Source: Schmidtea nova (lineage: Eukaryota). Taken from it: 64,000 bases of DNA. The notes under the pieces were generated by a model. That model worked only from the letters and a program-made list of their open reading frames with translations, did no database searches and was not told the DNA's origin. The stretch spans positions 49,848,001 to 49,912,000 of the forward strand of contig CM097884.1 in the NCBI GenBank assembly GCA_044892505.1. Direction: 5' to 3'. Below are positions 25,380 to 52,959 of this stretch, piece after piece. Made by a program: the position numbers and the translations under genes. The stretch's first letter is position 1; each line of letters opens with the position of its first letter.

Positions 25380-28300
25380 TGGCCTGCCGAACTTTGATTT
25401 GAACTTCGATTCGGACCAAAGTTCAAACACTTCGGAAACTTCGGACTTCGGCAATAGACCCTGTACGATCCAAATAGTGAAATTTTGCTTGAGCGATAAT
25501 AAATTATTATTGTTCCGTGATTATATACATTAAAATTAATGGCGACACGCAAACAATGAAAGTAAATAAAATCTTAGTTGTTGTTGTTCATTTTTCTTTA
25601 CTATCGATTTTCCTTTCTACGGCTATGTCATACGAACAGTGACAAGTCTAGCCTAGCCGTGGCTGTGTCGCTGTGTACACAATAGCCGTTCATGTTCATG
25701 CATCTCTATTCTCTACACTATAGCAGCCCTATACATCAATCTCCGACTACCCTTAGCATAATCTCGATTGATTCGAGCCACGATAATGGGGGGGCAGGCG
25801 CTTGAATAAGCATGGCTTGCGAGGCTGAGGCTACTGTAATACCACAATCAATTACCGATCGCAATCTAATAGGCCTAATAATAATTTTACTCTGTCCGAA
25901 ATTTGTTGCTTGGGCACTATTAGACTTGACTACTGTCAAGAGAGAAATACCACATAATCTACACATTTAAATTAATGTTGAGCACATTTAAATTTATTAT
26001 GTCATCTATCGTCTCTGTATGTCGACTCTCCAATCTTATTGCATGCCTGATGGAAGCAGCACAAGATGCCACGCGCGTGTATGCAGTTCAACTGAGTGCA
26101 TATGTCAATGTCATGCACGATGATGTTCGTATACCGTACCTATCGACTTTATCGACAATAATACTTATTATAAAATTATATATAAATAATTGTGTCATTT
26201 TTCTGTCATAAAATTGTGTGTCATAAATGAATGATTTATTCATTAGGTAAAATATTAGACTGAGCAGAACTGCCAGTTGAGCATCCGATTCACTTTCCAC
26301 ATCATCACATGCGAAAATCTCCATAGCTCCATACCCCTCCCCAGTGTACATAATATATATAAAAGCCCATCAAATTTGAAATCGAAATTTTTAAATATAT
26401 TTCTTCAACAAAATTAATAAATTAGATTTAAATATTAAAAAATTAAATTAAATAAATATGGCTAATGCTATGAGAAGTAAAATTTGGAATTTCTTTGAAA
26501 TCAACGCTGTGGATGAATCTTTTGCTAACTGTGGGACATGTAGAATGAAAATGAAACGTGGCGGCAAGGATCCAAGATCATACGGAACAACAACATTAAT
26601 CAACCACCTACGTTCTAAACATCCGGACAAGTACAAAGAATATTCACAGGCGTGTGATTCTGCAAAGAAACGACAAGCTGAAGAGGAAGAAAATCAACTC
26701 AATGCCGCAGCTAAGAAGCCAAAGCTACAAACTCTGGATGCATGTATTGAACGTACACGTCCATTTGAATCGGGCCATCCTCGTCAGATCCTCATAACGA
26801 AACTAATTGGTGAGATGATAGCCTTGGATAGTCAGCCATTTTCGATTGTCAGTGACGAAGGATTCCGACGTGTTCTGCATCAATTGGAGCCCAGATACGT
26901 CATTCCAGACGAGACTTATTTCTCAAGAACAATCATACCGGACATGTTTGCTGCAGTGAAGTCGAAAGTCAAGAATCTCATCGGAGATGCCAAACGTCTG
27001 TGCTTCACGAGTGATGTGTGGACAACCACCAACAGCCTAAATGGATTCCTCTCTTTGACAGCACACTGGATCGACAACAATTGGGAACGCAAATTTGTGG
27101 TGCTGGCACTTCGAGGAATCAATGGACATCACACCGGTAAGCTGATTGGAGATACCATATTGGAATTGTTGAATGAATGGGACATTGATGCAGGCAGACG
27201 TGGAACCTTCGTTCGCGATAACGGGTCAAGCATGGTGAAGGCCGCTAGTGTTGCAGGCTTATCAGATCTAGGCTGCTACATACACACGATTCAGTTAGTG
27301 GTGGGTGCAGGATTAAAGAAGACGCAAAAGGCTGTCATTGACGCAGTTGCAGCTTCCCGCAACATTGTAACCCACTTCCGGCATTTACCATTAGCCAATG
27401 ATCGACTGGAAGAGATTCAAAAATCTTTTCAGCCGGATGCTGCCGGCAACCCATATCCCGTCCACCGCCTGATACAAGATGTACAGACAAGGTGGAACTC
27501 CACGTTTTATATGTTGGAACGTTTGATCGAACAGAGAAAAGCAATAGCTCTCTACAGCCAAGACGACGTCACCAATCTGACAAACAATCAGTGGAACTTA
27601 ATCGAAAGGGTCGTGTCGACATTGCGTCCATTTGAAGAGGAAACGCGGAATGCTAGTTTGTCAACTGCAACAAGAGGAATGATTATTCCAAGTGTGCGTG
27701 TACTTCAGGCAGTTTTGACGAGACCAGCAAAGGAGGGTGTCGACCCTCAGGGTGACGACCTCGGCATTCAAACAATGCGTGCTGAAATGCTTGCGGATCT
27801 CAGCCGCAGGTATGCTAACGTTGAAAATAATAAGTTGTGCGTGTTATCTACTGCTTTGGATCCAGTGTACAAGCTTCGTCTCTTTAACGCGGAAACTGCT
27901 GCCACTGCAAAACAATGGCTTCTGGATGCAATTAATGCTGTAACGTCGACGGACAACTCGCGTGATGAAGTGCCAGCAGGCCCAACACCTTTCACATCAT
28001 CTTCATCAGCCACATCTGCTTTGGATAGCTACTACGACGACATGCTTGGAGCTACACAATCCAACTCTACAGATTCCGGTAATCTCCAACAACAGCTCGA
28101 TGCATATTTAACGGAAGCGTGCAACCAACGACACTCGCCTCCAAAAGATCCAATAGAATATTGGAAATCAAGGCAATACACCTATCCTCAACTTGCACTG
28201 GTCGCCAAACAATTCTGTGCTTCTCCTCCTTCCAGCATGGATAGTGAAAGAACCTTCAGTTGGCTGGTCTTATATGCGATGACCGTCGATCAAACTTAAC

Positions 28301-33544: not shown

Positions 33545-36500
33545 AAATTAATCCAATTGTTTAAATATTGTAAAGAATAATAAATATTTGAATTTCGAAT
33601 CTTTAGTTAATTTTAAAATGGATACTATTAATACTCGTTCCATACAATCTAACATGGCGACCACGCTACTGGCTAATTTTGTGAAACCTCCAGATACTTT
33701 TGACATTGGAGATGATATTCTGAAATTCATTGAAGAGATCGAGAGATTTTTCCAATTATTGAATATTGAAGAACGATTTTATGAAAACTTTGTCAAAGCG
33801 TTTATGACAATAAATGCACTCAAGAAATATGAAGAAACTGACAATATGAAGAACTTCAAAGAAAGACTCAAATTAGCTTTTCTGAAACCTCAGTCAATTA
33901 TCGAAGACTTACAGGAAGCTCTACAATATAAACAAGGAGAAGATTCAGTCATGGAATTTTGCCAGAAAATTGAAAAATATGCTGATAAAATTTTGAAGCA
34001 TAAATTGGATAAAGAAACTTTAACACAGTTCCTATTATTTAATGCCCTTCAAAATAAAGAAGTTAAGATGGATTTAAAGATGCAGGAGTTAAATACATTC
34101 GAAGACATGAAAAACAGAATGATGAAGCACGAGAAAATTGTTAAAGAAATCGATGAAAATGTGAAAAACTTTGCAGTTATCAACAAGAAACTTTATTCTG
34201 ATACGGTTCGAGGCCAAAGTGAAGTAAGATGGGCTAAAATTTCTATTCAGGAAGATGTCAACAATTATAGAAAGAAGAATACAACAATCGAAAACATGAA
34301 TGTTTCAGTGGGAATAAAATTTCAAATAACTACAAAAACAAAGCCAATTATTATCACAACAAAGATAACACAAGTAAATACTTTAATCAAAATAATGATT
34401 ACAGAAACAAAATTCGATTTGAGAATAATCATAACGAGAAAAGGTTTTTCGATGCTGGGCGTGTACAGAAATCGGACATCGTAGAGCTGAATGCCCAAAT
34501 GTGAGATGTTCTAAATGCCACAAGCAAGGACATTTTCGACATCAATGCCGGGATTTGCGACAAGATGGCAAATATCAGTACGCAAAATCAATTGCTGGAA
34601 TGGACGAGGAGATACCAAATGAGGATGAGCAGTACCCAAATGCCAAAGCTTTTGCACTAGAGGAGGTGACAGGAGCGTATCACTAAACGTAAGCAATATT
34701 GTGAGCAAGAATTGTTTGTCTGTATATGAATGTGACTGTATGTATGATGATTATTTTTCCAATAATTTTTTAAATAATAATTTTTTAAATAATTTATTTA
34801 AATTAAATGACTGTAAAGAGTCTAATAAAAATTCACCTAATGAATATTTAAGTTTAATTAATAATTACGATGATTATCCAGTAAATGATGCCGATAAATG
34901 TATTAGTTTGATTAATGATAGAATATGTACGATAAATGAAAATTATTCAATAATAAAATATGATTCATTGGGGGGGTAGACCTAGCATTGAAGTTAATAT
35001 TTCTAATAATAATTACAAAATTTTACTCGATACGGGAGCAAAAATAAGTGTAATTCAACGAGATTTATTAGAAAAGTGTCATTTATCAGAATTAAAACAG
35101 AGCAGTATAAAAGTTAAGTGTGCGAATGATAGTCCACTAAGAATAGTAGGTGCAGTTACACTTAATATCAAAATAAAAGGAATTATTCAAAGCAAAAATA
35201 TTGCTTTTTATGTTGCGGCAGAAATTTCTCCTAAACTAATTGGTGGAATGAATTTTTTAGAAGAATTTGGGATTAAATTAGAAATATATAATAAGAATAT
35301 AGAGAGTTCAAAGGACAAATATATAAATTTAATGGATAAAGTATTGAAATTTGAATGCAGTGATAAAAACATAACCGATTTAGTTAGAAAATACGATAAA
35401 ATATTTATGAAACATAAATGGGATATAGTGAAAACTGATATTATAAGACATGAAATTATTACCTCGGGGAAACCAATAGTTATTAATCCAAGGCGACAAC
35501 CAGCCCATTTGATAGAGAAAATAGATGATCAAATTAAAGAGTTAGTAAAATATGGAATAGTTAAGGAATGTGATACACCGTGGAACACTCCACTTGTTTG
35601 TGTGAAAAAGAGAGGTGCTGATGAAATCAGGATATGTTTAGATTTTCGTGGACTTAACAGTGTAGCTGAGAGGCCGAATTTCCCAATGCCAAATACAAAT
35701 GAATTATTTGATGTCTTAAATGAGTCAAAGTTTTTCTCCACTATTGATTTAGGAAATGCATACTATCAAGTAGAATTAGAGGAAGATTCCAAACTGAAAA
35801 CAGCTTTTTCAACCAAATCTAAACAGTATTGTTTTAATAGAATGCCATTTGGAATTGCAGCAGCCCCAGGAACATTTCAAAAATTAATGAATAAAGTATT
35901 GGGAGAACTTAATTTGGTAGATGCTGTTGTATATCTAGATGATATACTAATTTTTTCAAAAACGTTAGTGGAACATTAAAAATCTATAGAAAAAATTTTT
36001 AAGAAAATAGAAGGAGCAGGTTTAAAGATAAATTCATCAAAATGTCAGTTTTTAAAAAATGAAGTTAGGTTTATAGGACATATAATTAATAAAGATGGTA
36101 TTAAAACTGATCCGGAAAAAGTACAAGCAATAAAAGAATTTGATTAGCCAAAATGTATTAAAAAATTACGAAGTTTTTTAGGGCTAGCAAATTACTACCG
36201 AAAATTTATTCAAGACTACTCAAAACATGCCAAGATATTAGAGAGCTTGTGTGGAAGTAATAAAAATAAATTGATATGGACTCAAGAATGTGAGAACAAT
36301 TTTCAGCAGTTAAAGAATAAATTATGTTCAGCACCAGTTTTAGTATATCCAGATTTCAATAAAACGTTTATATTAGATACAGACGCTAGTTTTGATCGAA
36401 TTGGGGCGGTTCTCTCACAAATTCACGATGATGGCAATGAGAGAGTTATCTCTTATGGATCGCATTCTATGAGTAAACATGAACTTGGATATTGCATTAC

Positions 36501-38167
36501 ACGTAAAGAATTGTTAGCAATTTATTATTTTACCAACCACTTTAAACATTATCTATATGGAAAAAGATTTAAATTGAGAACAGATCATAAGGCAATAACG
36601 TTTATGTTAAGAACTAAAAAACCTTTAACACTTCAATTTCAGACATGGATCAACTACCTGAGCGGCTTAGACATTGATATGCAATTTAGAAAAGGTGAAA
36701 GTCATTCTAACGCCGATGCTATGTCAAGAAGTGAATGCACGTCATGCATACAATGCCAAATGATTCACCCAGATCCAAAAGTAAGAAAACTGAAAACCAA
36801 AATTTTGGCTTTGATGACAAATGATAGTGAAAACATTTGGCAAAATAATGTAAAAGAAATTAAAGATATTATCGAAAATAAAGATAAAAAGGAAATAGGT
36901 AAATTTATAGTTCAAAATGGAATAGTAAAAACAGAAACCAATAAAGTATGGATACCTGAAGTGAAAAGAGAAGATTTTATTAAAAATTATCATAAAAAAC
37001 TATGCCATGCTGGGTTTAAAAAAGTTGAAAAATATATTCAAAATAACTTTGCAATGAAAGACATGAACAAAATAATAAAAGAAGTAGTACAAAGTTGTGA
37101 AAACTGTCAAAAAAGGAAAGTGCTGACTACTAAAAGTAAAGAAACAATAAAAGTTCCTCGTGAGGTAGAATTATTTGAATCAATATTTGTTGATTTCTGT
37201 GGACTATTTAAAGCTAATATTAACAATAAAAAAAACATACCAGCTATTATTGATCAGCATAGCAAATATGTATCATTGAATGCAGTGAGTGCCCAAGATG
37301 AAAAAACTACTGCAATGATTCTAAAGAACCAATGGATATTAAAATTTGGATATCGATATTTAAAAGTTTTGAAAGCGCTATGTTGAAAGAACTTTGTACA
37401 TTGCATAACTGTCAACTGGTATTTTCAAGCCCTTATCATCACTCAGCTAACGGACAAATAGAAAGGCAATTTCATACAATTAGGGATGCAATTAATATTT
37501 CACTTAAAGATAAATTTCATAAAAACTGGGTTGAATTGCTTCCAGAAGTTGAATTTATGCTGAACTCAACATTCCAAAAATCAATTAATGAATTTCCTGC
37601 GCAAATTGTTTTTGGGAAAAATATATATCACGAATGGGTGGATCAACAAAATCAAGTTGGATTAGATCAAGTGTGTTCAAAAGAGAATACATATAGAAAT
37701 TTTGCAAATGGTGATATTGTGCTAATTAGAAAAGATTTGCGTAATAAAGAAGATAATCGATATGAAGGCTCAGGAGTAATAACCAATAAACGACATGGAA
37801 GGAGTTATGAAATAAGAATGCCAAATGTTAAAACACTAACAAGAAATGTAGAATGGCTCAAGCCTTTTAAAAGGAGGGGAATGTAAGGAATAAGTTAAAT
37901 AAAGCCTAACTTAATTAATCAACTAATTTAAATATTGTATATTAATTAATTTATAATTTAATAAGTATGGTGTATAAATAATAATTGTAAATATTATATT
38001 AATAATTTAAATAATGATTGTAGAATGATGTTGTCTTGCTCAGAATATTGTGGACGTAAATTAATCCGCTTGTTTAAATATTGTAAATAATAATAAATAT
38101 TTGAATTTCGAATCTTTAGTTAATTTTAAAATGGATACTATTAATACTCGTTCCATACAATCTAACA
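33545..38167 (+). mobile_element. Ty3/Gypsy LTR retrotransposon, near full length but inactivated; 5' LTR truncated
   Basis: 3' LTR 37882-38167 (TG...CA, 286 bp). Its last ~110 bp recur at 33545-33654. PBS TGGCGACCACG from 33655, PPT AAAGGAGGGGAA at 37870-37881. gag has two CX2CX4HX4C knuckles. LLDTGAKIS, YLDD, RNase H (TDAS, ELLA) and integrase HHCC are present. Several premature stops and frameshifts. Confidence 0.96.
34635..34680 (+). promoter_or_regulatory. Candidate -1 programmed ribosomal frameshift site (gag to pol)
   Basis: C CCA AAT heptamer in correct phase with the gag frame, followed after about 6 nt by a possible stem (GCTTTTGCAC...GTGACAGGAGC). The -1 frame is open into the pre-protease ORF. 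Confidence 0.6.
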
Positions 38168-38739
38168 ATATGGGTGAAAGATATTTCATTACTTAATAGT
38201 TTTATACCGTGGTTTTCTCGGTATATCAAATAATAATATATAATAATAATTTTTGCATTAATTCGTTTTGATTATGACTTTTCTTTGTTTAGGAACATAT
38301 CAGTTCCTTACTCAATCCCGTGCAACAATAGAGTTCCTATCGTCAATTCTGGCGACAAAAACTTTTATAGACTTTTCTGGCAAATTTATCAACATTAAAT
38401 CAATAAATATTTCTCAGTATGTTTTTTAAAAATTAATTTGTTGTTTTCAATTATCATGAAATTTTAAATAGAAAATGATGGTTAATAAGTTGAAAGAGTT
38501 TAGAGATTGCGAATTTATTCATTATAAGCATTGTCAAAATTATAGAGATTGAAAAAATCAGGGTGTCAATGTAATCATAAAATGAGTCATAGTAATAAAC
38601 TTGATAGAATAAGTCACAAATTTGTGTTTATTAGACAGAAAAAATAATTTTCATAAATATTGATGGAGGTCTTTTTTATATAAATATTTATATATTTCCA
38701 TTTATATTAATATATATTTTTGAAATGCTTAGTTGTAAC

Positions 38740-39510
38740 TGGTCCAAGATCTTTCAAAATTTGTGAAACCATATTTTTATAACAGTATTTTTCTGCTTTT
38801 ATGGTCACATTTTTTCCCTCATATGTGTGCACATCATAATTATAGTTGTTTCTGTTCAGAAACCTTCACTGAATAAGTTTTAAATAGCTTCAGAGACATC
38901 TGCAATTAATACTTCAGGTTGTAAATATACGTTGTTTACATTGTTTTACGTTTCATATTCGTTTTTAAATATTTTAGAATATTTAACTGTTCCTTCAATT
39001 TGTTGTCTCCTTAATCAATTAATCTGAATTACATTAGTAAGGAAAACGAAAAATAATTTGAAAAATTCCCAATTCATCTAACGTTTATTTTTTATATATA
39101 AAATAAATTTATTGATTTTTACAGCAACTGAGTTCACCGGTTTCTATGGAAGATTTGGTAAATAGCAGTTTGAAGTACGTTCCGCTTTTATTTTTTAAAT
39201 TTGTTTCTGTTTTGTTTATTAAATGTAAATATTTTTAAAGAGTGTCATCTAAAATAGTTGCTTGGGTCAGTGAGTGTACCGTGGGTCATATGTTTGCATC
39301 GACGCACTAAGACATTACGTTCATTTATGGTTTAGTAGTAAATGGTTCAGATCTTTCAAAATTTGTGGAACAATATTTTTATGAAAGTATTTTTCTGCTT
39401 ATTTCGTCACATTTTGTCTCATGTGTCCAATACATAATTATAGTTGTTTATGTTCCGAGACATTCACTGAATAAGTTTTAAAAAGCTTCGGAGACATTTG
39501 CAATTAAAGG
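38740..39510 (-). pseudogene. Two diverged copies of a MULE transposase core fragment (38740-38930 and 39340-39510)
   Basis: PEVLIADVSEAI*NLF...IIMMCTHM and LIANVSEAF*NLF...IMYWTH...PQILKDL match the MULE LIAD...AI.N...CW.HM pattern. Confidence 0.65.
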
Positions 39511-39997
39511 TTAAGTTTGTAAATTTATCTAGGCTATGTATGTCGTCATCATTTTCAGAATTTTTAATATCAGAGGAAATTATTTATTATAACAGTTATT
39601 AAATAAAGTATATACAAATAGTACAATTTCTCAAGAACCGTAGCTTACGCCTTAACAAATAATTTTTAGTTCAGAGTAAGAGGTTATTAAATTGCATGAC
39701 AATAAATAAACTAGACTAAGTCTTAGTTAAATGAAACAATAACAATAAAAAGATAGTAAAGAATGAATAAAACTGTATAAAATAAAATTTCTTTCAAATT
39801 TTTATCAGCCCAGTTCGCGAGAGTTAATGTGGTACCGTTAGAAAATTATAATATATAACACAGGATAAATTTATTTAAATACAGTAAAAATAAAATTCAT
39901 TTACAAATAAGAAAAGATCATAAATCATACTTATATAAAAATAAAAATTATAATTAATGATTAAAATTTATTATAAAATTTAAATAATTGTATTTAG

Positions 39998-40134
39998 TAA
40001 TATATGCCCTGATGACACGGACCTAATGAAACCTAACGAACCGGAGCCTGAACCAAAGCGTAAACGGAATAGAGTAGTAATAGAATAGTAATTTTTAGCT
40101 AACTGGTACTCAAATTTTAATTATTTATATCTAT
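39998..40134 (+). pseudogene. Isolated paralogue of the terminal exon of the 44-52.9 kb cassette array
   Basis: TTTAG|T AAT ATA TGC CCT GAT GAC... reads NICPDDTDLMKPNEPEPEPKRKRNRVVIE*, nearly identical to 52779-52851. The following intron-like sequence is cut at 40134. Confidence 0.7.
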
Positions 40135-41359
40135 TGTTGGGCTAGCTAAACAGAGGAAAGAGTAAAATAAACCTATAATAATTGAAACAAAAAGAGAAAA
40201 TATAAGATAAGAAAGGGGAATATTAAATTTAAAAGAAAAAGGGTAATATAAATAAAATATAGATGAATTACTGGTAAATTAAATATAAAAATAGATAAAT
40301 TGAGGAGATTTCCAAAATTAACCGGCATAAGAGACACCTAAAAACAAATAAAATGTAAATATTGATAATTAAAACAAAATAAAAGTATTTTTTATTAAAT
40401 AATTGTTCTGAAAAGCCGGATCACCTAGAAAGAATCGAATCGAATCTAAAAAATAAAAATTAATTAAGTAAAGAAAATAATAATTGGACCTACGGTATAG
40501 ACAATCAAACCTGATTGGTCAAGCTAGACCAGACAGATCAGTATATATACTGATCATAAATTCAGTCAAAAAAAAGATAAGAATAACAAGTTTTAGACAA
40601 CAGACTAGTATTGACACAAACTGAGACATTTAGATCAATTGCGAATTTTACATTGAAACCTAGACATTGTCACATTTCAACGGAACTTGGACCCAATCAC
40701 CAGTTTTCGGATCAATAATCTTAAGTAATTTTAAGTTTGATTTATGTATATGCTTTATGTTGTTGGTTTCGGATTGGGTTAAAACAAAAATAGTAAATTA
40801 AACTAATAATTATTTTTAAACGCTCTAGGGATTCCTCCATCCAAAACCTCACATAAAATGCTTACATATCACACGAGCACCCTCGATCATTTCCCTGTAA
40901 TAATCGAGTTGGAAATGTGCAAGGTGTTTGAACAATGATGGGCAGGTGAGCTCTATTGCTAAAACTACTCCCCATTTATGTTCACGGGTTCGTCTCGCTG
41001 CCGATAGAAGGACTTACGCTTTAAGTTTAATCTATCCGCATCCATTATCTTTCATTTCAATTATTTCTTTAGCCCCCTTTTCTTTACAATATATTTCAAC
41101 TTTCAATTTTTCTTTCGGCCCCCTTCTTTACAATATCAACAAATAATCTTTAATCAATTACAATTTATTATCTCTTTAATGTTTCTATTGTTTATTAGAT
41201 TTATGTTAATCTTATTGTTAGTTCTAATGTATAGTTAATTTATTCTATATTTTCCTTTAAATCATTTTAAATTTTTAATAAATCACATTATTTTCTATAC
41301 TTTACCATAAAATAAATACAAACAAAAATTATTTAATAAGCAAAGAAATCACAAAATTT

Positions 41360-41950
41360 CTATTCAAAGTATTTGGTAATGTCTTCATCGGAAACTACAA
41401 AATCCGTGGTTAAATCAATTTCCGGAATGTTGTTTGATCGTTGTGCCAATTGCTGGAGAACTTGTTTCTTCCAGCGACGCTGACGTGCGCCCATCTTACT
41501 CTTCTTTTTCTTCTTGACCTCTGGATTTATCGGGTTCTTTGGTGTACTGGCTACTGTTGTTGCTTGAACCTGAGAGGGTTCCTCGGTGTTCGTTCCTTTT
41601 GTGCATCCTGCTTTCTCGTCAGCCCAATGTTGATAAGTGATTGGTCGAATGAGCTGGCTGAGCTCTTGAGTTAGATACGATGCCGTTACAGATTTTAGGC
41701 ATTTCTTTAATTCCATCTTCGTCGCGTCCAATTCCATTTGTAATTCGCTGTTAGCTCGCTGAGAGCGTTGAGTTTTTGTAATTTGCATTTTCATTTGTTC
41801 TGGACTGAACCAGCTTTTCTTTAGGTTGGAGATTATGCCATCGGCTTCTTTTATTTTTTCCGATTTTCGCAGCATTTCCTTTTCGAGGCTGCGAATTATC
41901 CTCCATGCTTTGTCTAACTCGGCTTGGTTAGTTGCTGTGTTGGCTGACAT
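41360..41950 (-). CDS. Unknown 196-aa coiled-coil protein with basic and acidic C-terminal motifs (ORF-B family, intact copy)
   Basis: Open GC-richer ORF. It aligns without gaps over 63 aa to 54911-55462, and with one gap to 57863-58231. ATG lies 3 nt after a TTTTAG acceptor. Confidence 0.75.
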   Translation of the reverse strand: MSANTATNQAELDKAWRIIRSLEKEMLRKSEKIKEADGIISNLKKSWFSPEQMKMQITKTQRSQRANSELQMELDATKMELKKCLKSVTASYLTQELSQLIRPITYQHWADEKAGCTKGTNTEEPSQVQATTVASTPKNPINPEVKKKKKSKMGARQRRWKKQVLQQLAQRSNNIPEIDLTTDFVVSDEDITKYFE

Positions 41951-42079
41951 TTTCTAAAATTCAGGATTGGTTTATTAACATGAAATTAGTAGTCTTGATT
42001 CGAACGATTCTCATACTTTTGACAGTTATTAATTGCAAATTCAGGAAGAGAAAATGATGTACCTATTACACTTTCAACA

Positions 42080-42216
42080 CTGTCGCTATGTACAGCGATC
42101 AGATACCTTTATTTCATAATACATTTTATTTATTCACGCCTGTGCTATATACAGCAATCAGGATAAGAAAATTATTAAAATAAACTAAGATCCACTGCCC
42201 TATGTACAGGGTTCAG
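42080..42216 (-). repeat. Three repeated stem-loops, each containing TGTAYATA on the minus strand
   Basis: Plus strand CTG-TCGCT-ATGTAC-AGCGA-TCAG, CCTG-TGCT-ATATAC-AGCA-ATCAGG and CTG-CCCT-ATGTAC-AGGG-TTCAG. Spacing 59 and 55 nt. Confidence 0.75.
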
Positions 42217-42677
42217 GATAAGCAATTATGTTTAATTATTTATCTGGAATGTTTGAACCTATAGCCTATTGCTGCTATGTTACTTGCGTAGTAGATCACT
42301 ACGTTATTAGAGTTATCGATTTTTATGTTGTTATTAAAATTATATTTTGTACAAATTCTTAACCGTGTATCTGCCGCTCTATGCCCACAAACCCCAGATG
42401 TGACAATCGAAAAATATAGCTTAACATTCTGTGAATCTCAAGGTAAAATCAGATTAATCAAATCACAGCTATATCTGTCTCAAACTACAATCAAACCTCA
42501 ACTTAACTATAAACTCAAAAATTTAAATCGATTATAAAATAAAACTTCAACTGGCTATACTATCCAGTGAAAACTAAGGTTAGAAATCAAAAATAAAATT
42601 CCTACCCTCGTCACGGCGCTTTACACCGGTCGGACGGCCTAACTGTACGGAGCAGTCGTTTCTACTCGGCACAGTAT

Positions 42678-42969
42678 GCCTCCATTTCACCGATTGCACG
42701 GTGATCGGAGCCCCTTAAATCGTACGTAATTTCTACTGTATCTACTGTATATAAATAATATATATATATTCGCCTCCTTCCACTGATTTCACAGTAGAAG
42801 AAGCTCGACCCAAAAATGGTTTATAAAAATATACTTCAACCTAATTGTTAATATCACAACATAATGTTGCCTCCTTCCACCGATTACACGATGGAAGAAG
42901 CTCAATAAAAGGTATATAATAGATATATGAAGTCGTCTCCTACCACTGATTGCACAGTGGAAGAAGCTT
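42678..42969 (-). repeat. Four ~35-bp palindromic repeats separated by unique AT-rich spacers
   Basis: Consensus CCTCCTTCCACYG-ATTNCA-CRGTGGAAGAAGCT. Loops start at 42693, 42786, 42883 and 42949. Stems show compensatory T-A to C-G changes. Confidence 0.8.
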
Positions 42970-45900
42970 AGTTCAATTCTATATTTAATAATAATTTAAA
43001 ACATACTCAAAATATTTTATTAAAATAACCAAAATGGTCAATGACAGAACTCATAGAAAAACAAATTTATAAAAACAAGAAAAACAAAATATTTATACCT
43101 TTTATGTTGTTCACAAAATTTGCATATACAAAACAAAATTTTCAATCACTGAAAAATTTTTCACCTATCACTTTATCTATATTTTTAACTGAATCTGGAT
43201 CAGTATTTATACTGACCAGATCAGATGTTGAACCAATCAGCGTGAAGCTGATTATCAGATCAGCACAAATAATAAATTACATTAAAAATCAAATCGATTG
43301 ATTTGCTTTAAATTGCTAATAATTTGTTGTTTTTGATTTTTAATATTCTGTAATTCTTTTTCTTTATTATTTCTTTATTTTGCCTTAAATACAATTAAAT
43401 ATCATTGTTTCTTTAACACTTTTACATTTTCTATTTACTTTCTTCTAAATTTTGATAGAAAATTGATATTCTTTATTACATTTTAATTCGTTTTTACTGA
43501 TATTTTCCATAATTATATTTATTTTAATTTATTCTTATTTTATTTCTTATTATTATTATTTTTTATGCTAAATGTGGATCAAATGGTGGATCCAACATTT
43601 ACATGATTTTGTCATAATAATTACCTTTGTCATATAAATTATATTTCGTATTAATAATTTTGTTCTCTTAATCTTTTTCATACAATTTTTATATGCTAAT
43701 TTTGTGGTGTTAATGAATTGAATTATAGAACTTAAATTATGAAATTTAGTGCGCCGACGGGGAGCAATAGGTTCCCAGGGTGTCACTCCGCATCGTGTGG
43801 TTTCAGAGGCTCCACACATGGTAGAGAAATCAATAAAATTAAATAAAATTCTACAGGGTTGCACATGGAACACAAAGAATCGAGGCAAAAATTTCCGTTG
43901 CGGATAGCAGTGAGTAGGTGAGGGCACTGATTTAAATAAATTATGGCAAACAAGAATAAACCCGAGAAGCGTTATATGTTAACAAATTTAAATCCGAGGC
44001 TGTTTTTATAGGTACATTAACCCTTCTGTATTATATATATAATTTACTTACAGGAAATTGGCGACCATAAATGAAAGATTTAACGGAACAAAGTATTAAT
44101 ATAATAGTAATTTTTAGCTAACAGGTACTCAAATTTTAATTATTTATATCTATTATCCAAAAATTTATTATAAAATTTAAATAATTTTATTTAGCAGTAT
44201 AAGGCCTGAAAACGTAAAAGAACCAAAGCGGAAGCAGAAGAGTAGGCCTATAGTGTGTCCTGGGACTAGGTCTGGTTCTAGGCGTAGACCAGGACCAGAA
44301 CCGGTTCTAATTCTAGACGAGATATCTCGACCAACGTAATTAATTAATTTATTCAATAAATTATTATGTTATTGTATTTTTTTAGTCCAAGTATAACGGA
44401 TGAATATGAAGATCCTCTCTCTTGACCAAACATTACTCCGGTCTCTCAGCGAAATTAAATAATTAATATATTCAATAAATTATTATTTTATTGTATCTTT
44501 TAAGAAGTATAAGAATTATTAACATGAGACGAAATGAACGATTATAATGCCACCATCTATATTGACCAACAGAGAAATCAAAAAGACAACGAGTGGCTTC
44601 AAAGTGAAAAATATTGCCTTAATTAATATAGTCTTTATATTTAGATTTAGTCGAAATTCTTCATGGAAAAAACAGATATAACGGTAAATAAATAACTTTC
44701 TTTAATAAATATATATAATTTACTTACAAAAAATTGGCGACCATAAATGAAAGATTTTACGGAATAGAGTAGTAATGGAATAGTAATTTTTAGCTAACTG
44801 GTACTCAAATTTTAATTATTTATATCTATTATTCAAAAATTTATTATAAAATTTAAATAATTTTATTTAGCAGTATAAGGCCTGAAAACGTAAAAGAACC
44901 AAAGCGGAAGCAGAAGAGTAGGCCAATAGTGTGTCCTGGGACTAGGCCTGGTTCTACGCATAGACCAGGACCAGAACCGGTTCTAATTCTAGACGAGGTA
45001 TCTCGACCAACGTAATTAATTTATTTATTCAATAAATTATTATGTTATTGTATTTTTTTAGTCCAAGTATAACGGATGAATATGAAGATCCGAACATTAC
45101 ACTGGTCTCTCAGCGAAAGTAAATAATTATTATCTTCAATAAATAATTATTTTTTTAATCTTTTTAGAAGCGAAAGAATTATTAACAAGAGGCAAAGTGA
45201 ACAGTTTATAATGCCGCCTTCTGAGACTCTGGCAGAGAAAAGACGAATGGCTTCAAAGTAAAAAATATTACATTTAATAATATTGTCTTTATATTTAGAT
45301 TTAGTTGAAATTCTTCATTGAAAATACAGATAGAACGGTAAATAAATAATTTTTTTTAATAAATATATATAAATTACTTACAGAAAATTGGCGAAACCAA
45401 ATGTAAGATTTAACGGAAAAGAGGGGAGATTTAATGGAATAGAGTAGTAATAGAATAGTAATTTTTAGCTAACTGGTACTCAAATTTTAATTATTTATAT
45501 CTATTATCCAAAAATTTATTATAAAATTTAAATAATTTTATTTAGCAGTATAAGGCCTGAAAACGTAAAAGAACCAAAGCGGAAGCAGAAGAGTAGGCCA
45601 ATAGTGTGTCCTGGGACTAGGCCTGGTTCTACGCATAGACCAGGACCAGAACCGGTTCTAATTCTAGACGAGGTATCTCGACCAACGTAATTAATTTATT
45701 TATTCAATAAATTATTATGTTATTGTATTTTTTTAGTCCAAGTATAACGGATGAATATGAAGATCCGAACATTACACTGGTCTCTCAGCGAAAGTAAATA
45801 ATTATTATCTTCAATAAATAATTATTTTTTTAATCTTTTTAGAAGCGAAAGAATTATTAACAAGAGGCAAAGTGAACAGTTTATAATGCCGCCTTCTGAG

Positions 45901-48900
45901 ACTCTGGCAGAGAAAAGACGAATGGCTTCAAAGTAAAAAATATTACATTTAATAATATTGTCTTTATATTTAGATTTAGTTGAAATTCTTCATTGAAAAT
46001 ACAGATAGAACGGTAAATAAATAATTTTTTTTAATAAATATATATAAATTACTTACAGAAAATTGGCGAAACCAAATGTAAGATTTAACGGAAAAGAGGG
46101 GAGATTTAATGGAATAGAGTAGTAATAGAATAGTAATTTTTAGCTAACTGGTACTCAAATTTTAATTATTTATATCTATTATCCAAAAATTTATTATAAA
46201 ATTTAAATAATTTTATTTAGCAGTATAAGGCCTGAAAACGTAAAAGAACCAAAGCGGAAGCAGAAGAGTAGGCCTATAGTGTGTCCTGGGACTAGGTCTG
46301 GTTCTAGGCGTAGACCAGGACCAGAACCGGTTCTAATTCTAGACGAGATATCTCGACCAACGTAATTAATTAATTTATTCAATAAATTATTATGTTATTG
46401 TATTTTTTTAGTCCAAGTATAACGGATGAATATGAAGATCCTCTCTCTTGACCAAACATTACTCCGGTCTCTCAGCGAAATTAAATAATTAATATATTCA
46501 ATAAATTATTATTTTATTGTATCTTTTAAGAAGTATAAGAATTATTAACATGAGACGAAATGAACGATTATAATGCCACCATCTATATTGACCAACAGAG
46601 AAATCAAAAAGACAACGAGTGGCTTCAAAGTGAAAAATATTGCCTTAATTAATATAGTCTTTATATTTAGATTTAGTCGAAATTCTTCATGGAAAAAACA
46701 GATATAACGGTAAATAAATAACTTTCTTTAATAAATATATATAATTTACTTACAAAAAATTGGCGACCATAAATGAAAGATTTTACGGAATAGAGTAGTA
46801 ATGGAATAGTAATTTTTAGCTAACTGGTACTCAAATTTTAATTATTTATATCTATTATTCAAAAATTTATTATAAAATTTAAATAATTTTATTTAGCAGT
46901 ATAAGGCCTGAAAACGTAAAAGAACCAAAGCGGAAGCAGAAGAGTAGGCCAATAGTGTGTCCTGGGACTAGGCCTGGTTCTACGCATAGACCAGGACCAG
47001 AACCGGTTCTAATTCTAGACGAGGTATCTCGACCAACGTAATTAATTTATTTATTCAATAAATTATTATGTTATTGTATTTTTTTAGTCCAAGTATAACG
47101 GATGAATATGAAGATCCGAACATTACACTGGTCTCTCAGCGAAAGTAAATAATTATTATCTTCAATAAATAATTATTTTTTTAATCTTTTTAGAAGCGAA
47201 AGAATTATTAACAAGAGGCAAAGTGAACAGTTTATAATGCCGCCTTCTGAGACTCTGGCAGAGAAAAGACGAATGGCTTCAAAGTAAAAAATATTACATT
47301 TAATAATATTGTCTTTATATTTAGATTTAGTTGAAATTCTTCATTGAAAATACAGATAGAACGGTAAATAAATAATTTTTTTTAATAAATATATATAAAT
47401 TACTTACAGAAAATTGGCGAAACCAAATGTAAGATTTAACGGAAAAGAGGGGAGATTTAATGGAATAGAGTAGTAATAGAATAGTAATTTTTAGCTAACT
47501 GGTACTCAAATTTTAATTATTTATATCTATTATCCAAAAATTTATTATAAAATTTAAATAATTTTATTTAGCAGTATAAGGCCTGAAAACGTAAAAGAAC
47601 CAAAGCGGAAGCAGAAGAGTAGGCCAATAGTGTGTCCTGGGACTAGGCCTGGTTCTACGCATAGACCAGGACCAGAACCGGTTCTAATTCTAGACGAGGT
47701 ATCTCGACCAACGTAATTAATTTATTTATTCAATAAATTATTATGTTATTGTATTTTTTTAGTCCAAGTATAACGGATGAATATGAAGATCCGAACATTA
47801 CACTGGTCTCTCAGCGAAAGTAAATAATTATTATCTTCAATAAATAATTATTTTTTTAATCTTTTTAGAAGCGAAAGAATTATTAACAAGAGGCAAAGTG
47901 AACAGTTTATAATGCCGCCTTCTGAGACTCTGGCAGAGAAAAGACGAATGGCTTCAAAGTAAAAAATATTACATTTAATAATATTGTCTTTATATTTAGA
48001 TTTAGTTGAAATTCTTCATTGAAAATACAGATAGAACGGTAAATAAATAATTTTTTTTAATAAATATATATAAATTACTTACAGAAAATTGGCGAAACCA
48101 AATGTAAGATTTAACGGAAAAGAGGGGAGATTTAATGGAATAGAGTAGTAATAGAATAGTAATTTTTAGCTAACTGGTACTCAAATTTTAATTATTTATA
48201 TCTATTATCCAAAAATTTATTATAAAATTTAAATAATTTTATTTAGCAGTATAAGGCCTGAAAACGTAAAAGAACCAAAGCGGAAGCAGAAGAGTAGGCC
48301 TATAGTGTGTCCTGGGACTAGGTCTGGTTCTAGGCGTAGACCAGGACCAGAACCGGTTCTAATTCTAGACGAGATATCTCGACCAACGTAATTAATTAAT
48401 TTATTCAATAAATTATTATGTTATTGTATTTTTTTAGTCCAAGTATAACGGATGAATATGAAGATCCTCTCTCTTGACCAAACATTACTCCGGTCTCTCA
48501 GCGAAATTAAATAATTAATATATTCAATAAATTATTATTTTATTGTATCTTTTAAGAAGTATAAGAATTATTAACATGAGACGAAATGAACGATTATAAT
48601 GCCACCATCTATATTGACCAACAGAGAAATCAAAAAGACAACGAGTGGCTTCAAAGTGAAAAATATTGCCTTAATTAATATAGTCTTTATATTTAGATTT
48701 AGTCGAAATTCTTCATGGAAAAAACAGATATAACGGTAAATAAATAACTTTCTTTAATAAATATATATAATTTACTTACAAAAAATTGGCGACCATAAAT
48801 GAAAGATTTTACGGAATAGAGTAGTAATGGAATAGTAATTTTTAGCTAACTGGTACTCAAATTTTAATTATTTATATCTATTATTCAAAAATTTATTATA

Positions 48901-50566
48901 AAATTTAAATAATTTTATTTAGCAGTATAAGGCCTGAAAACGTAAAAGAACCAAAGCGGAAGCAGAAGAGTAGGCCAATAGTGTGTCCTGGGACTAGGCC
49001 TGGTTCTACGCATAGACCAGGACCAGAACCGGTTCTAATTCTAGACGAGGTATCTCGACCAACGTAATTAATTTATTTATTCAATAAATTATTATGTTAT
49101 TGTATTTTTTTAGTCCAAGTATAACGGATGAATATGAAGATCCGAACATTACACTGGTCTCTCAGCGAAAGTAAATAATTATTATCTTCAATAAATAATT
49201 ATTTTTTTAATCTTTTTAGAAGCGAAAGAATTATTAACAAGAGGCAAAGTGAACAGTTTATAATGCCGCCTTCTGAGACTCTGGCAGAGAAAAGACGAAT
49301 GGCTTCAAAGTAAAAAATATTACATTTAATAATATTGTCTTTATATTTAGATTTATTTGAAATTCTTCATGGAAAAAACCGATAGAACGGTAAATAAATA
49401 ATTTTCCTTAATAAATATATATAATTTACTTACAAAAAATTGGCGACCATAAATGAAAGATTTAACGGAATAGAGTAGTAATAGAATAGTAATTTTTAGC
49501 TAACTGGTACTCAAATTTTAATTATTTATATCTATTATCCAAAAATTTATTATAAAATTTAAATAATTTTATTTAGCAGTATAAGGCCTGAAAACGTAAA
49601 AGAACCAAAGCGGAAGCAGAAGAGTAGGCCTATAGTGTGTCCTGGGACTAGGTCTGGTTCTAGGCGTAGACCAGGACCAGAACCGGTTCTAATTCTAGAC
49701 GAGATATCTCGACCAACGTAATTAATTAATTTATTCAATAAATTATTATGTTATTGTATTTTTTTAGTCCAAGTATAACGGATGAATATGAAGATCCTCT
49801 CTCTTGACCAAACATTACTCCGGTCTCTCAGCGAAATTAAATAATTAATATATTCAATAAATTATTATTTTATTGTATCTTTTAAGAAGTATAAGAATTA
49901 TTAACATGAGACGAAATGAACGATTATAATGCCACCATCTATAATGACCAACAGAGAAATCAAAAAGACAACGAGTGGCTTCAAAGTAAATAATATTGCC
50001 TTTAATAATATTGTCTTTATATTTAGATTTAGTCGAAATTCTTCATGGAAAAAACAAATAGAACGGTAAATAAATAATTTTCTTTAATAAATATATATAA
50101 TTTACTTACAAAAAATTGGCGACCATAAATGAAAGATTTAACGGAATAGAGTAGTAATGGAATAGTAATTTTTAGCTAACTGGTACTCAAATTTTAATTA
50201 TTTATATCTATTATCCAAAAATTTATTATAAAATTTAAATAATTTTATTTAGCAGTATAAGGCCTGAAAACGTAAAAGAACCAAAGCGGAAGCAGAAGAG
50301 TAGGCCTATAGTGTGTCCTGGGACTAGGCCTGGTTCTACGCATAGACCAGGACCAGAACCGGTTCTAATACTTGACGAGGTATCTCGAACAACATAATTT
50401 ATTTATTTATTCAATATATTATTATGTTATTGTATTTTTTAGTCCAAGTATAACGGATAGACGAAATGAACGATCTGGATGCCCCAATTTATGGGAAGAA
50501 CAAATGTAAGAATTTGTTAAAATTTATTATTGAATTTACTTTTTAATTTGAGTTTTTAATTTAAAT

Positions 50567-50655
50567 AATACTTTTAATATATTATTTTTAAATCATTTTG
50601 TAATTGTTTTTCAAACCATTACAAAATGATTTAAAAGTATAATATTAAAAGTATT
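50567..50655. repeat. Long AT-rich inverted repeat (arms about 37 bp)
   Basis: AATACTTTTAATAT...TTTTAAATCATTTTGTAAT / ATTACAAAATGATTTAAAA...ATATTAAAAGTATT. Confidence 0.8.
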
Positions 50656-50669
50656 TATATTATGAAATA

Positions 50670-51186
50670 TTCATTTTACTTTTTTTTTTGATAAAAAACA
50701 TTTATGTAATAGAATTATATATATGAAACAATTTACTTTATTCATTTTTTGATAAAAAACATTTATGAAATAGAATTATATATGAAACAATTTAATTTAT
50801 TCATTTTTTGATAAGAAACATTTATGAAATAGAATTATATATGAAACAATTTAATTTATTCATTTTTTGATAAGAAACATTTATGAAATAGAATTATATA
50901 TATGAAACAATTTACTTTATTCATTTTTTGATAATAAACATTTATGAAATAGAATTATTTTTGATAAAAAACATTTATGAAATAGAATTATATATGAAAC
51001 AATTTACTTTATTCATTTTTTGATAATAAACATTTATGAAATAGAATTATATATATGAAACAATTTACTTTATTCATTTTTTGATAAAAAACATTTATGA
51101 AATAGAATTATATATGAAACAATTTACTTTATTCATTTTTTGATAATAAACATTTATGAAATAGAATTATTTTTGATAAAAAACAT
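50670..51186. repeat. Minisatellite of 59-61 bp units (two 33-bp short units)
   Basis: TTTTTTGATAA(A/T)AAACATTTATGAAATAGAATTATATATGAAACAATTTACTTTATTCA, about 10 copies. Confidence 0.92.
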
Positions 51187-51329
51187 TAAAGAAATATTTT
51201 TTATGTAACAACATATTATTATTATTATTGATATAATTTATTTTTATTTTATTTATAATGTTATATATTGAAAATTTATTTAAATATTTATTTAAATTCA
51301 GGTTTAATCTACAAAAATTTTTGCAACAG

Positions 51330-51765
51330 TAGGTTCCATAATGATTGCCATGTCATTATGGAAAAATACTACTCGTTGACATATATTACTGTTACCCACC
51401 TCCTATGTCCCACCTGTAAACTTATCGAAATTTCCAGATATCTTGATTTCTTTAATAGGCACTGTAGCCATCTTTCGCAGTTTCAGCCTTCCAAGAAAAT
51501 TTTATGTAAGGAAATTTTTCCTAATTTTATTAATAACAACAACCAAATTATTCCTATAAATAACAATAATCTAAATAATAATCTAAATAATACAAATAAT
51601 CTAAATAATACAAATAATAATCATACAAATAATTTAAATAATATCAATAATACAAATAATACAAATAATACAAATAATTTAAATAATAATAAAAGAAAAC
51701 ATATTAAAATACCGGATTCAGTTCCTACTAAAATTCAAATAATAGATCTCACTGATGATGAATAA
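51330..51765 (+). CDS. Putative exon encoding a His/Cys motif, an Asn-rich tract and an IIDLTDDE tail
   Basis: Part of ORF 51268-51765. The acceptor TTTTTGCAACAG|T at 51329 is in phase 2 with the upstream 63-nt exon 50443-50505. Reads RFHNDC...LLCPTCK...HCSH, then N-rich repeats. Confidence 0.4.
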
Positions 51766-52959
51766 TTAGTCATCAGTGATGATGAAAATTTAAATAATAA
51801 TAATTTAAATAATATTAACCAAATAGGATATGGTGCCGTCGAGATCGTAAATGATCTAAATAATAATCATATAATTATTAAAATGGACGTTGAAAATTAA
51901 AATTTGAAATATATATAATAAATATATATAATTTACTTACAAAAAATTGGCGACCATAAATAAAAGATTTAACGGAATAGAGAAGTAATAGAATAGTAAT
52001 TTTTAGCTAACTGGTACTCAAATTTTAATTATTTATATCTATTATCCAAAAATTTATTATAAAATTTAAATAATTTTATTTAGCAGTATAAGGCCTGAAA
52101 ACGTAAAAGAACCAAAGCGGAAGCAAAGAGTAGGCCTATAGTGTGTCCTGGGACTAGGCCTGGTTCTAGGTATAGACCAGGACCAGAACCGGTTCTAATT
52201 CTAGACGAGGTATCTCGAACAACATAATTAATTTATTTATTCAATATATTATTATGTTATTGTAATTTTTAGTCCAAGTATAGCGGATGAATATGAAGAT
52301 CCTCTCTCTTGACCAAACATTACTCCGGTCTCTCAGCGAAATTAAATAATTAATATATTCAATAAATTATTATTTTATTGTATCTTTTAAGAAGTATAAG
52401 AATTATTAACATGAGACGAAATGAACGATTATAATGCCACCATCTATAATGACCAACAGAGAAATCAAAAAGACAACGAGTGGCTTCAAAGTAAAAAATA
52501 TTGCCTTTAATAATATTGTCTTTATATTTAGATTTAGTCGAAATTCTTCATGGAAAAAACAGATAGAACGGTAAATAAATAATTTTCCTTAATAAATATA
52601 TATAATTTACTTACAGAAAATTGGCGACCATAAATGAAAGATTTAACGCAATAGAGGGGAGATTTAACGGAAAAGAGTAGTAATATAATAATAATTTTTA
52701 GCTAACTGGTACTCAAATTTTAATTATTTATATCTATTATCGAAAATTTTATTATTAAATTTAAATATTTTTATTTAGTAATATAAGCCCTGATGACACG
52801 GACCTAATGAAACCTAATTATCCGGAGCCTGAACCGAAGTGTAAACGTTAGATTTATTCAATAAATTCTTTCAGAAATGTATCCAGTATTTATTTAAAAA
52901 GTATTCCAAATCACCATAATTTATTCAAAGATTTTATAAAAATTTAAACAAATGTTGCG

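Follow-up and report, generated by a model that had tools for sequence, protein, structure and literature searches.

Complex retroviruses are characterised by switches that pair a protein with an RNA element, Rev/RRE and Tat/TAR being examples. The TAR hairpin of HIV is built of a lower stem, a 5' bulge, a 4-bp upper stem and a 6-nt loop and is located at the 5' end of the transcript, and its partner Tat contains a cysteine-rich activation domain. Rev-like proteins carry an arginine-rich motif and often coiled coils, and their RNA target lies in the env/LTR region (passages of PMC5568270). Among planarian retroelements, Burro is described as having Gag knuckles, an env-like fusion in frame before the protease, and ankyrin, MATH/TRAF and RING domains (passages of PMC6431247), and one Burro element has been reported to support planarian stem cells (as cited in a passage of PMC13465017).

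The locus described here is part of the window, which is the whole 64,000-nt stretch of Schmidtea nova DNA that was analysed. It comprises the following features:

40758..43597, minus strand: solo LTR of a ~25-kb Burro-like element, 2,840 bp, with TG...CA ends and a 4-bp target duplication, TTTA
43204..43240, minus strand: predicted promoter, with a CCAAT-box motif at 43232-43240 and TATAAATA at 43204-43211
43093..43099, minus strand: predicted first splice donor, AG/GTATAA (GTATGR in close relatives)
42195..42216, minus strand: hairpin 1, first in sense order; CUG, bulge AA, stem CCCU/AGGG, loop GUACAU, CAG
42140..42161, minus strand: hairpin 2; CUG, bulge AU, stem UGCU/AGCA, loop GUAUAU, CAG
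42080..42102, minus strand: hairpin 3; CUG, one bulged A, 5-bp stem UCGCU/AGCGA, loop GUACAU, CAG
41954..41960, minus strand: predicted splice acceptor, TTTTAG, located 3 nt ahead of the ORF-B start codon ATG
41360..41950, minus strand: ORF-B, 196 aa, with predicted long N-terminal helices, a disordered linker, a basic helix at ~148-171 and an acidic-hydrophobic tail
40825..41020, minus strand: conserved 3' block, from an alignment of 18 loci, with a donor-like GTAAGT at 41012-41017, ATAAA at 40975-40980 and then GU-rich sequence

Because TG...CA ends and the TTTA duplication bound the repeat at 40758-43597, the LTR of the window is a solo LTR. Contigs in four sequencing runs of unspecified kind span the empty site (window 40754-43602), and the insertion is therefore absent from some chromosomes or individuals. 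A DNA search of the own genome gave 996 candidates (40 scored), many of them paired ~22 kb apart. One full-length copy (C2:292218000-292243000) has LTRs that are 99.86% identical, long ORFs on the strand equivalent to the minus strand of the window and, after the LTR end, a primer-binding-site-like sequence that we take to be of the tRNA-Pro type. Pfam places a viral fusion glycoprotein ahead of the protease in this copy and also matches a Gag with two CCHC knuckles, ankyrin repeats, MATH/TRAF and RING, a domain set that agrees with the description of Burro (passages of PMC6431247). Reverse transcriptase, RNase H and integrase were not detected in this one full-length copy examined, from which the env-bearing lineage may be non-autonomous. 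At its end, the long ORF of the copy has a repeat region and a hydrophobic stretch. Elsewhere the window contains S-adenosylhomocysteine hydrolase exons (10509-12081, minus strand), a hAT transposase (26452-28299, plus strand), an ordinary Gypsy pol region (33552-37886, plus strand) and a tandem array of ~675-bp units (44033-52793), and a 98% identical duplicate of 37188-47195, LTR included, is located ~670 kb away.

An earlier note on this DNA had drawn attention to three stems with differing but complementary arms (TCGCT/AGCGA, TGCT/AGCA and CCCT/AGGG) framed by CTG...CAG and spaced 55-59 nt apart, and all three are located where it had placed them. The perfect Pumilio 8-mers that it assigned to the ORF-B strand are likewise present in 3/3 hairpins, namely TGTACATA at 42208, TGTATATA at 42153 and TGTACATA at 42094, spaced 55 and 59 nt apart, and the distance from the array to the ORF-B acceptor (AG at 41954-41955), given as 130-270 nt, was measured at 126-262 nt. 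Its description of the loops as Pumilio elements needs one correction: the 8-mer forms the tip of each hairpin, but the loop itself is 6 nt long (GUAYAU), as the first U and the last A of the 8-mer pair together and close it. The single-bulge 5-bp type represented by hairpin 3 is the last hairpin of the array in most clusters of related copies. Taken without a stem, the Pumilio 8-mer occurs in the window at chance level (20 found versus 17.2 in 100 dinucleotide shuffles), whereas 8-mers within three further Watson-Crick pairs number 5 in the window versus 0.39 in shuffles, and stem-embedded 8-mers in the LTR alone number 3 versus 0.012, with 0/500 shuffles reaching 3. The chance origin that the note had allowed for in this AT-rich background thus applies to the 8-mer alone and not to its stem-embedded form, the stems of which are conserved. 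Folded as a whole, the 161-nt stretch is unremarkable (z of -0.5 for the minus strand, -2.7 for the plus strand); the case for structure rests on covariation. The Rfam covariance models gave 0 matches at E <= 5 in 40700-43650. Other hairpins occur nearby: a separate array further upstream in the same predicted intron (42680-42970, minus strand) consists of four longer hairpins, the loops of which read UGHAAU, and was seen only in the clade of the window, and distant clades contain different bulged-A hairpins upstream of the array (loci L090 and L099).

Covariation was assessed in 100 related loci, which an identity threshold of 80% divides into 28 clusters and in which ORF-B identity falls as low as 33%; one locus without a hairpin was left out of the 28 clusters, and the loci were picked by motif or similarity, so that the share of LTRs without the motif cannot be derived from them. 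The general motif is CYG-A-N-NNNN-GUANAU-NNNN-(N)-CRG, with a 4-5-bp stem, and is usually present in 2-4 copies ~50 nt apart. In 36 distinct two-base-bulge hairpins, 95.1% of cells are paired, 6/8 pairs vary on both sides and the covariation score is reached by 0/500 shuffles, and in the single-bulge 5-bp type (19 of 26 distinct rows) 95.4% are paired and 5/8 pairs vary on both sides; the scan that supplied these rows had required 3 of the 4 upper pairs, and related copies do not count as independent events. Unbiased evidence is provided by two genome-wide patterns, one that leaves the stems free and one that forces the closing pair away from U/A. The stems-free pattern has 4,171 matches versus 164 for the reversed control, and the first 100 of these comprise 82 closed by U-A, 10 closed by C-G, 7 from an unrelated repeat and 1 unpaired. 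The seven, which are closed by A-U, were set aside; four of them, when fetched, were traced to a coding repeat that is unrelated and has neither a promoter block nor ORF-B. With the closing pair forced away from U/A there are 172 matches versus 3 in the control, 96 of the first 100 being C-G, and with a fixed U-A closure 1,915 versus 2. The CUG/CAG frame also swaps to CCG/CGG as Watson-Crick pairs, which ruled out a hammerhead, K-turn or SECIS reading of CUGA. An iron-responsive element was likewise ruled out, as its loop and bulge differ from those of the array. Among 283 hairpin calls, which are inherited and thus non-independent copies, G·U occurs 45 times versus 4 for A·C on the sense strand, and this bias therefore points to sense-strand RNA. 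The hairpin array is thus very probably a selected RNA structure, and it is likely read by its shape on the sense-strand RNA. At C1:91.98-92.91 Mb, one variant recurs about ten times at regular spacing, always with GTAGAT loops, and no ORF-B match was present in the stretch fetched.

The position of the array relative to the predicted transcription and splicing signals of the LTR is informative as well. The block formed by the CCAAT box and TATAAATA is located ~360-400 nt from the LTR start in 32/45 loci scanned, in both clades and with distant clusters included, and CTGATTGGT is present in 10/14 representatives; from these signals we infer a transcription start near 43180-43190. AGGTAT follows the TATA block at 100-124 nt in 22/22 loci listed of the 32 examined, all from the cluster of the window, amid divergent exon-1 sequence, and this donor is clear only in the clade of the window, distant clusters having weaker candidates or none. 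Copies with 96-98% identity at the hairpins differ strongly in the predicted exon 1 (43099-43185, minus strand), which nevertheless always terminates in the donor. On the acceptor side, most intact ORF-B homologues have a YAG 1-3 nt ahead of the ATG, as do 3/4 internal accessory ORFs checked. Because the array lies between the conserved TATA box and donor and the ORF-B acceptor, the hairpins are likely intronic, and intron 1 would likely extend from 43098 to 41954 and hold them ~1 kb after the start; across loci, the distance from the hairpins to the TATA box is about 680-1,500 nt. The predicted donor-acceptor joint had no match among the joints listed from the four sequencing runs, the depth peaks of which are uninformative on expression or start because they fall on blocks common to many subfamilies, and a search for genomic copies of spliced ORF-B RNA gave 0 matches in the genome, which bears neither way on splicing. 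The TATA box itself is located within an inverted repeat that resembles the hairpin motif (43190-43225, minus strand), with the loop GTAAAT in locus L058. In the 3' block, the ATAAA motif at 40975-40980 is a possible poly(A) signal, and if this is the poly(A) site, one LTR would be able to make a whole ORF-B mRNA. The GTAAGT and ATAAA of this block stand in the same order as in foamy viruses, in which a donor precedes the poly(A) signal (passages of PMC3694450). That the 3' block may itself be the promoter, which would place the hairpins in U3, was considered first and is held to be the less probable arrangement in view of the CCAAT/TATA/donor block.

The open reading frame that the predicted splice would bring into the first mRNA has conserved features of its own. 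ORF-B keeps a length of 196-200 aa among homologues down to 33% identity, and 16/16 aligned homologues contain 8-10 Lys/Arg in 15 residues, with Arg accounting for 3-6 of them and for only 3 in the basic patch of the window ORF-B. The basic stretch reads KKKKKSKMGARQRRWKK in the window and KRKRIGQKRRRQRK in the distant clade. Structure prediction gives long helices at residues 3-46 and 50-100, mostly with high pLDDT (pTM 0.28), and one Cys is nearly invariant in the alignment of homologues. No leucine-rich export-signal pattern, as judged by commonly used patterns, was found in the window ORF-B or in common among its homologues. Database comparisons yielded no relative in a profile search of 1.84 billion proteins, no match among PDB sequences, no fold match between the model (pTM 0.28) and viral folds, no homologue in a sequence search limited to proteins of length 107-343, one sub-threshold match in Pfam and no homologue in the ESM Atlas, in which the best score, 0.88, is a lead only. 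A second ORF-B-like frame, 28% identical, is located upstream of the hairpins at positions 2518-2883 (oriented) of locus L070, in one cluster. An alternative for the basic patch is that it acts simply as a nuclear localisation signal or as a helix that binds DNA.

Our tentative preference, held as quite possible and short of probable, is to regard the hairpins as a response element through which ORF-B would favour the intron-retaining full-length RNA. Transcription would start near 43185 and the short first exon would be spliced from 43098 to the ORF-B acceptor, removing the hairpins, so that the early spliced RNA would give rise to ORF-B. The protein would oligomerise via its helices, and its Lys/Arg helix would bind the 2-4 hairpins by recognising both the bulged A and the GUANAU loop. 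Once bound, ORF-B would promote the unspliced RNA that Gag and packaging require, by way of retention, export or read-through, export or splice-blocking being our first guess for the controlled step. This agrees with the earlier note's option of an element-specific protein-binding array, which fits the evidence. Among clusters, hairpins and ORF-B are separated by anything from ~130 nt to more than 1,000 nt, and the co-occurrence of the two gives no independent support because both are inherited in one LTR. On the unlikely side, though worth stating, is the broader proposal that, independently of retroviruses, a Gypsy-type planarian element evolved in its LTR a complete early/late switch made of promoter, exon 1, intronic hairpins and a basic-protein gene, in which each solo LTR would act as a self-contained regulator gene and RNA decoy tuning the family in trans. 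If true, the ORF-B/hairpin switch would bear on how Burro elements stay active or quiet.

Other readers of the hairpins have to be weighed against ORF-B. The earlier note had suggested germline or stem-cell control through Pumilio. On such a reading, a PUF protein would open the stem top of the U-A-closed hairpins and either repress or license the unspliced RNA. In the fullest array of each cluster, 71 hairpins in total, the closing pair is U-A in 55, G-C in 9, C-G in 6 and A-U in 1, and a perfect UGUAHAUA is the commonest state (45/71), with G at position 5 in 10 and no element in the remaining 16, which all keep the bulge, the stem and the GUANAU loop. Conservation in other copies thus extends to stem, bulge and loop but not always to the Pumilio match itself, and positions 1 and 8 of UGUAHAUA are kept as a pair and not as a sequence, because the closing bases covary, through apparently at least four separate changes that include copies with paired LTRs ~26.6 kb apart. 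Within the loop only position 5 of the 8-mer is free to vary, which is the position of least discrimination by PUM2, and the G that PUM2 prefers at +1 follows nearly all U-A-closed hairpins, but PUM2 favours the consensus base at every position (passages of 10.1101/403006). All six U-A swaps at the following-G pair fall in hairpins already without a match, as would suit a Pumilio site. At least one perfect match is kept in 26/28 clusters, but with 63% of hairpins matching this is about the chance expectation. The ends of the 8-mer are paired, and the predicted cost of opening it, 2.3 kcal/mol, would speak for Pumilio; RNA structure lowers PUM binding in vitro (passages of 10.1101/571588), and the effect of structure on PUM binding is reported to be small in cells (passages of 10.1101/403006). 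The Herpesvirus saimiri RNAs HSUR1 and HSUR2 offer a precedent in binding PUM1/2 via elements in a 3' loop (passages of PMC13692250), but PUF binding would leave the invariant bulged A and the lower stem unexplained. The joint swaps of the terminal U and A to C-G, G-C and A-U and the 16/71 hairpins without a match weaken the Pumilio suggestion, which we regard as improbable; Pumilio may still be an additional ligand of the U-A-closed hairpins, given the 45/71 perfect matches and the 26/28 clusters that keep at least one. A caution of more general use is that a GUANAU loop, once closed by U-A, can give a perfect Pumilio match at a hairpin tip as a mere by-product.

Retroviral psi follows the same intron logic, and it characteristically contains small hairpins that recur with a constant loop. 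The array resembles psi in both respects and could accordingly be imagined as a packaging signal, bound behind the first donor by the Gag nucleocapsid so that only unspliced RNA is marked for encapsidation. The full-length copy does encode a Gag with two CCHC knuckles, and it keeps the hairpins though reverse transcriptase and integrase were undetected in it, as expected of a cis signal. The array lies, however, ~1.3 kb ahead of the primer-binding site and would occur at both RNA ends, and a role as kissing loops in dimerisation was rejected, since the loops GUAGAU and GUAAAU are non-palindromic yet common (839 matches); packaging is thus an unlikely function in our estimate. Constancy of the loop and the bulged A while ORF-B drifted to 33-40% identity, from Lys-rich to Arg-rich, would suit a slowly evolving host partner, for instance a non-Pumilio export, localisation or splicing factor that reads bulge and loop, as with constitutive transport elements or retrotransposon localisation signals. 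Against this host protein stand the lack of an Rfam match and of any such element among the matches listed in a literature search with the loop words, and we doubt that it is the reader. That the LTR stems act at the DNA level, as palindromes bound by transcription factors or as hairpins of single-stranded DNA, is very improbable: the hairpins are indeed in the LTR ~1 kb from a TATA box that has a similar inverted repeat, but their arms vary yet stay complementary and G·U occurs on one strand only, neither of which is required of a double-stranded site. With its natural compensatory variants and an adjoining candidate partner, the 22-nt motif lends itself to direct tests.

Literature searches on Burro, on Pumilio with LTR stem-loops, on Rev-like Gypsy systems and on the loop words returned no description of the array among the matches listed, and papers or supplements may already contain it; those on Rev-like systems returned none for a Gypsy-type element among the matches listed, as far as their passages go. 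The closing-pair covariation and the promoter-donor placement were newly tested here. Compared with Burro/GYPSM1, the giant Gypsy-like planarian elements, the host is similarly a giant LTR element with the same domain set and differs in that the copy examined is without a reverse transcriptase, RNase H or integrase match, and the passages of PMC6431247 mention neither LTR hairpins nor an LTR-encoded gene. Compared with a Pumilio response element, the array shares a perfect UGUAHAUA at the stem-loop tip in 45/71 hairpins and a free position 5, but its positions 1 and 8 pair and covary, and 16/71 hairpins are without the element. With Rev/RRE, Rex, Rem and Rec it shares a small basic protein encoded by the element, with a predicted helical region that would serve oligomerisation and a predicted origin in spliced RNA (passages of PMC5568270). 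As in Rev/RRE, the RNA target is located in or near the LTR, and the array is predicted only in the intron-retaining RNA. Differences from Rev/RRE are that ORF-B has neither sequence similarity nor a conserved export-signal pattern, that 2-4 separate 22-nt hairpins take the place of a ~350-nt multi-stem element, and that the host is a Gypsy-type planarian retroelement. The hairpin anatomy, with its 5' bulge, 4-bp upper stem and hexaloop, is that of HIV TAR, and the motif IGQKRRRQRK of the distant-clade ORF-B resembles the basic motif of Tat. Unlike TAR, however, the array is located ~1 kb after the predicted start and not at the 5' end, its bulge is purine-led, and ORF-B is without a cysteine-rich domain. 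Because defining tests of both systems came out negative, the array is filed under neither Rev/RRE, which it resembles in logic, nor TAR, which it resembles in shape.
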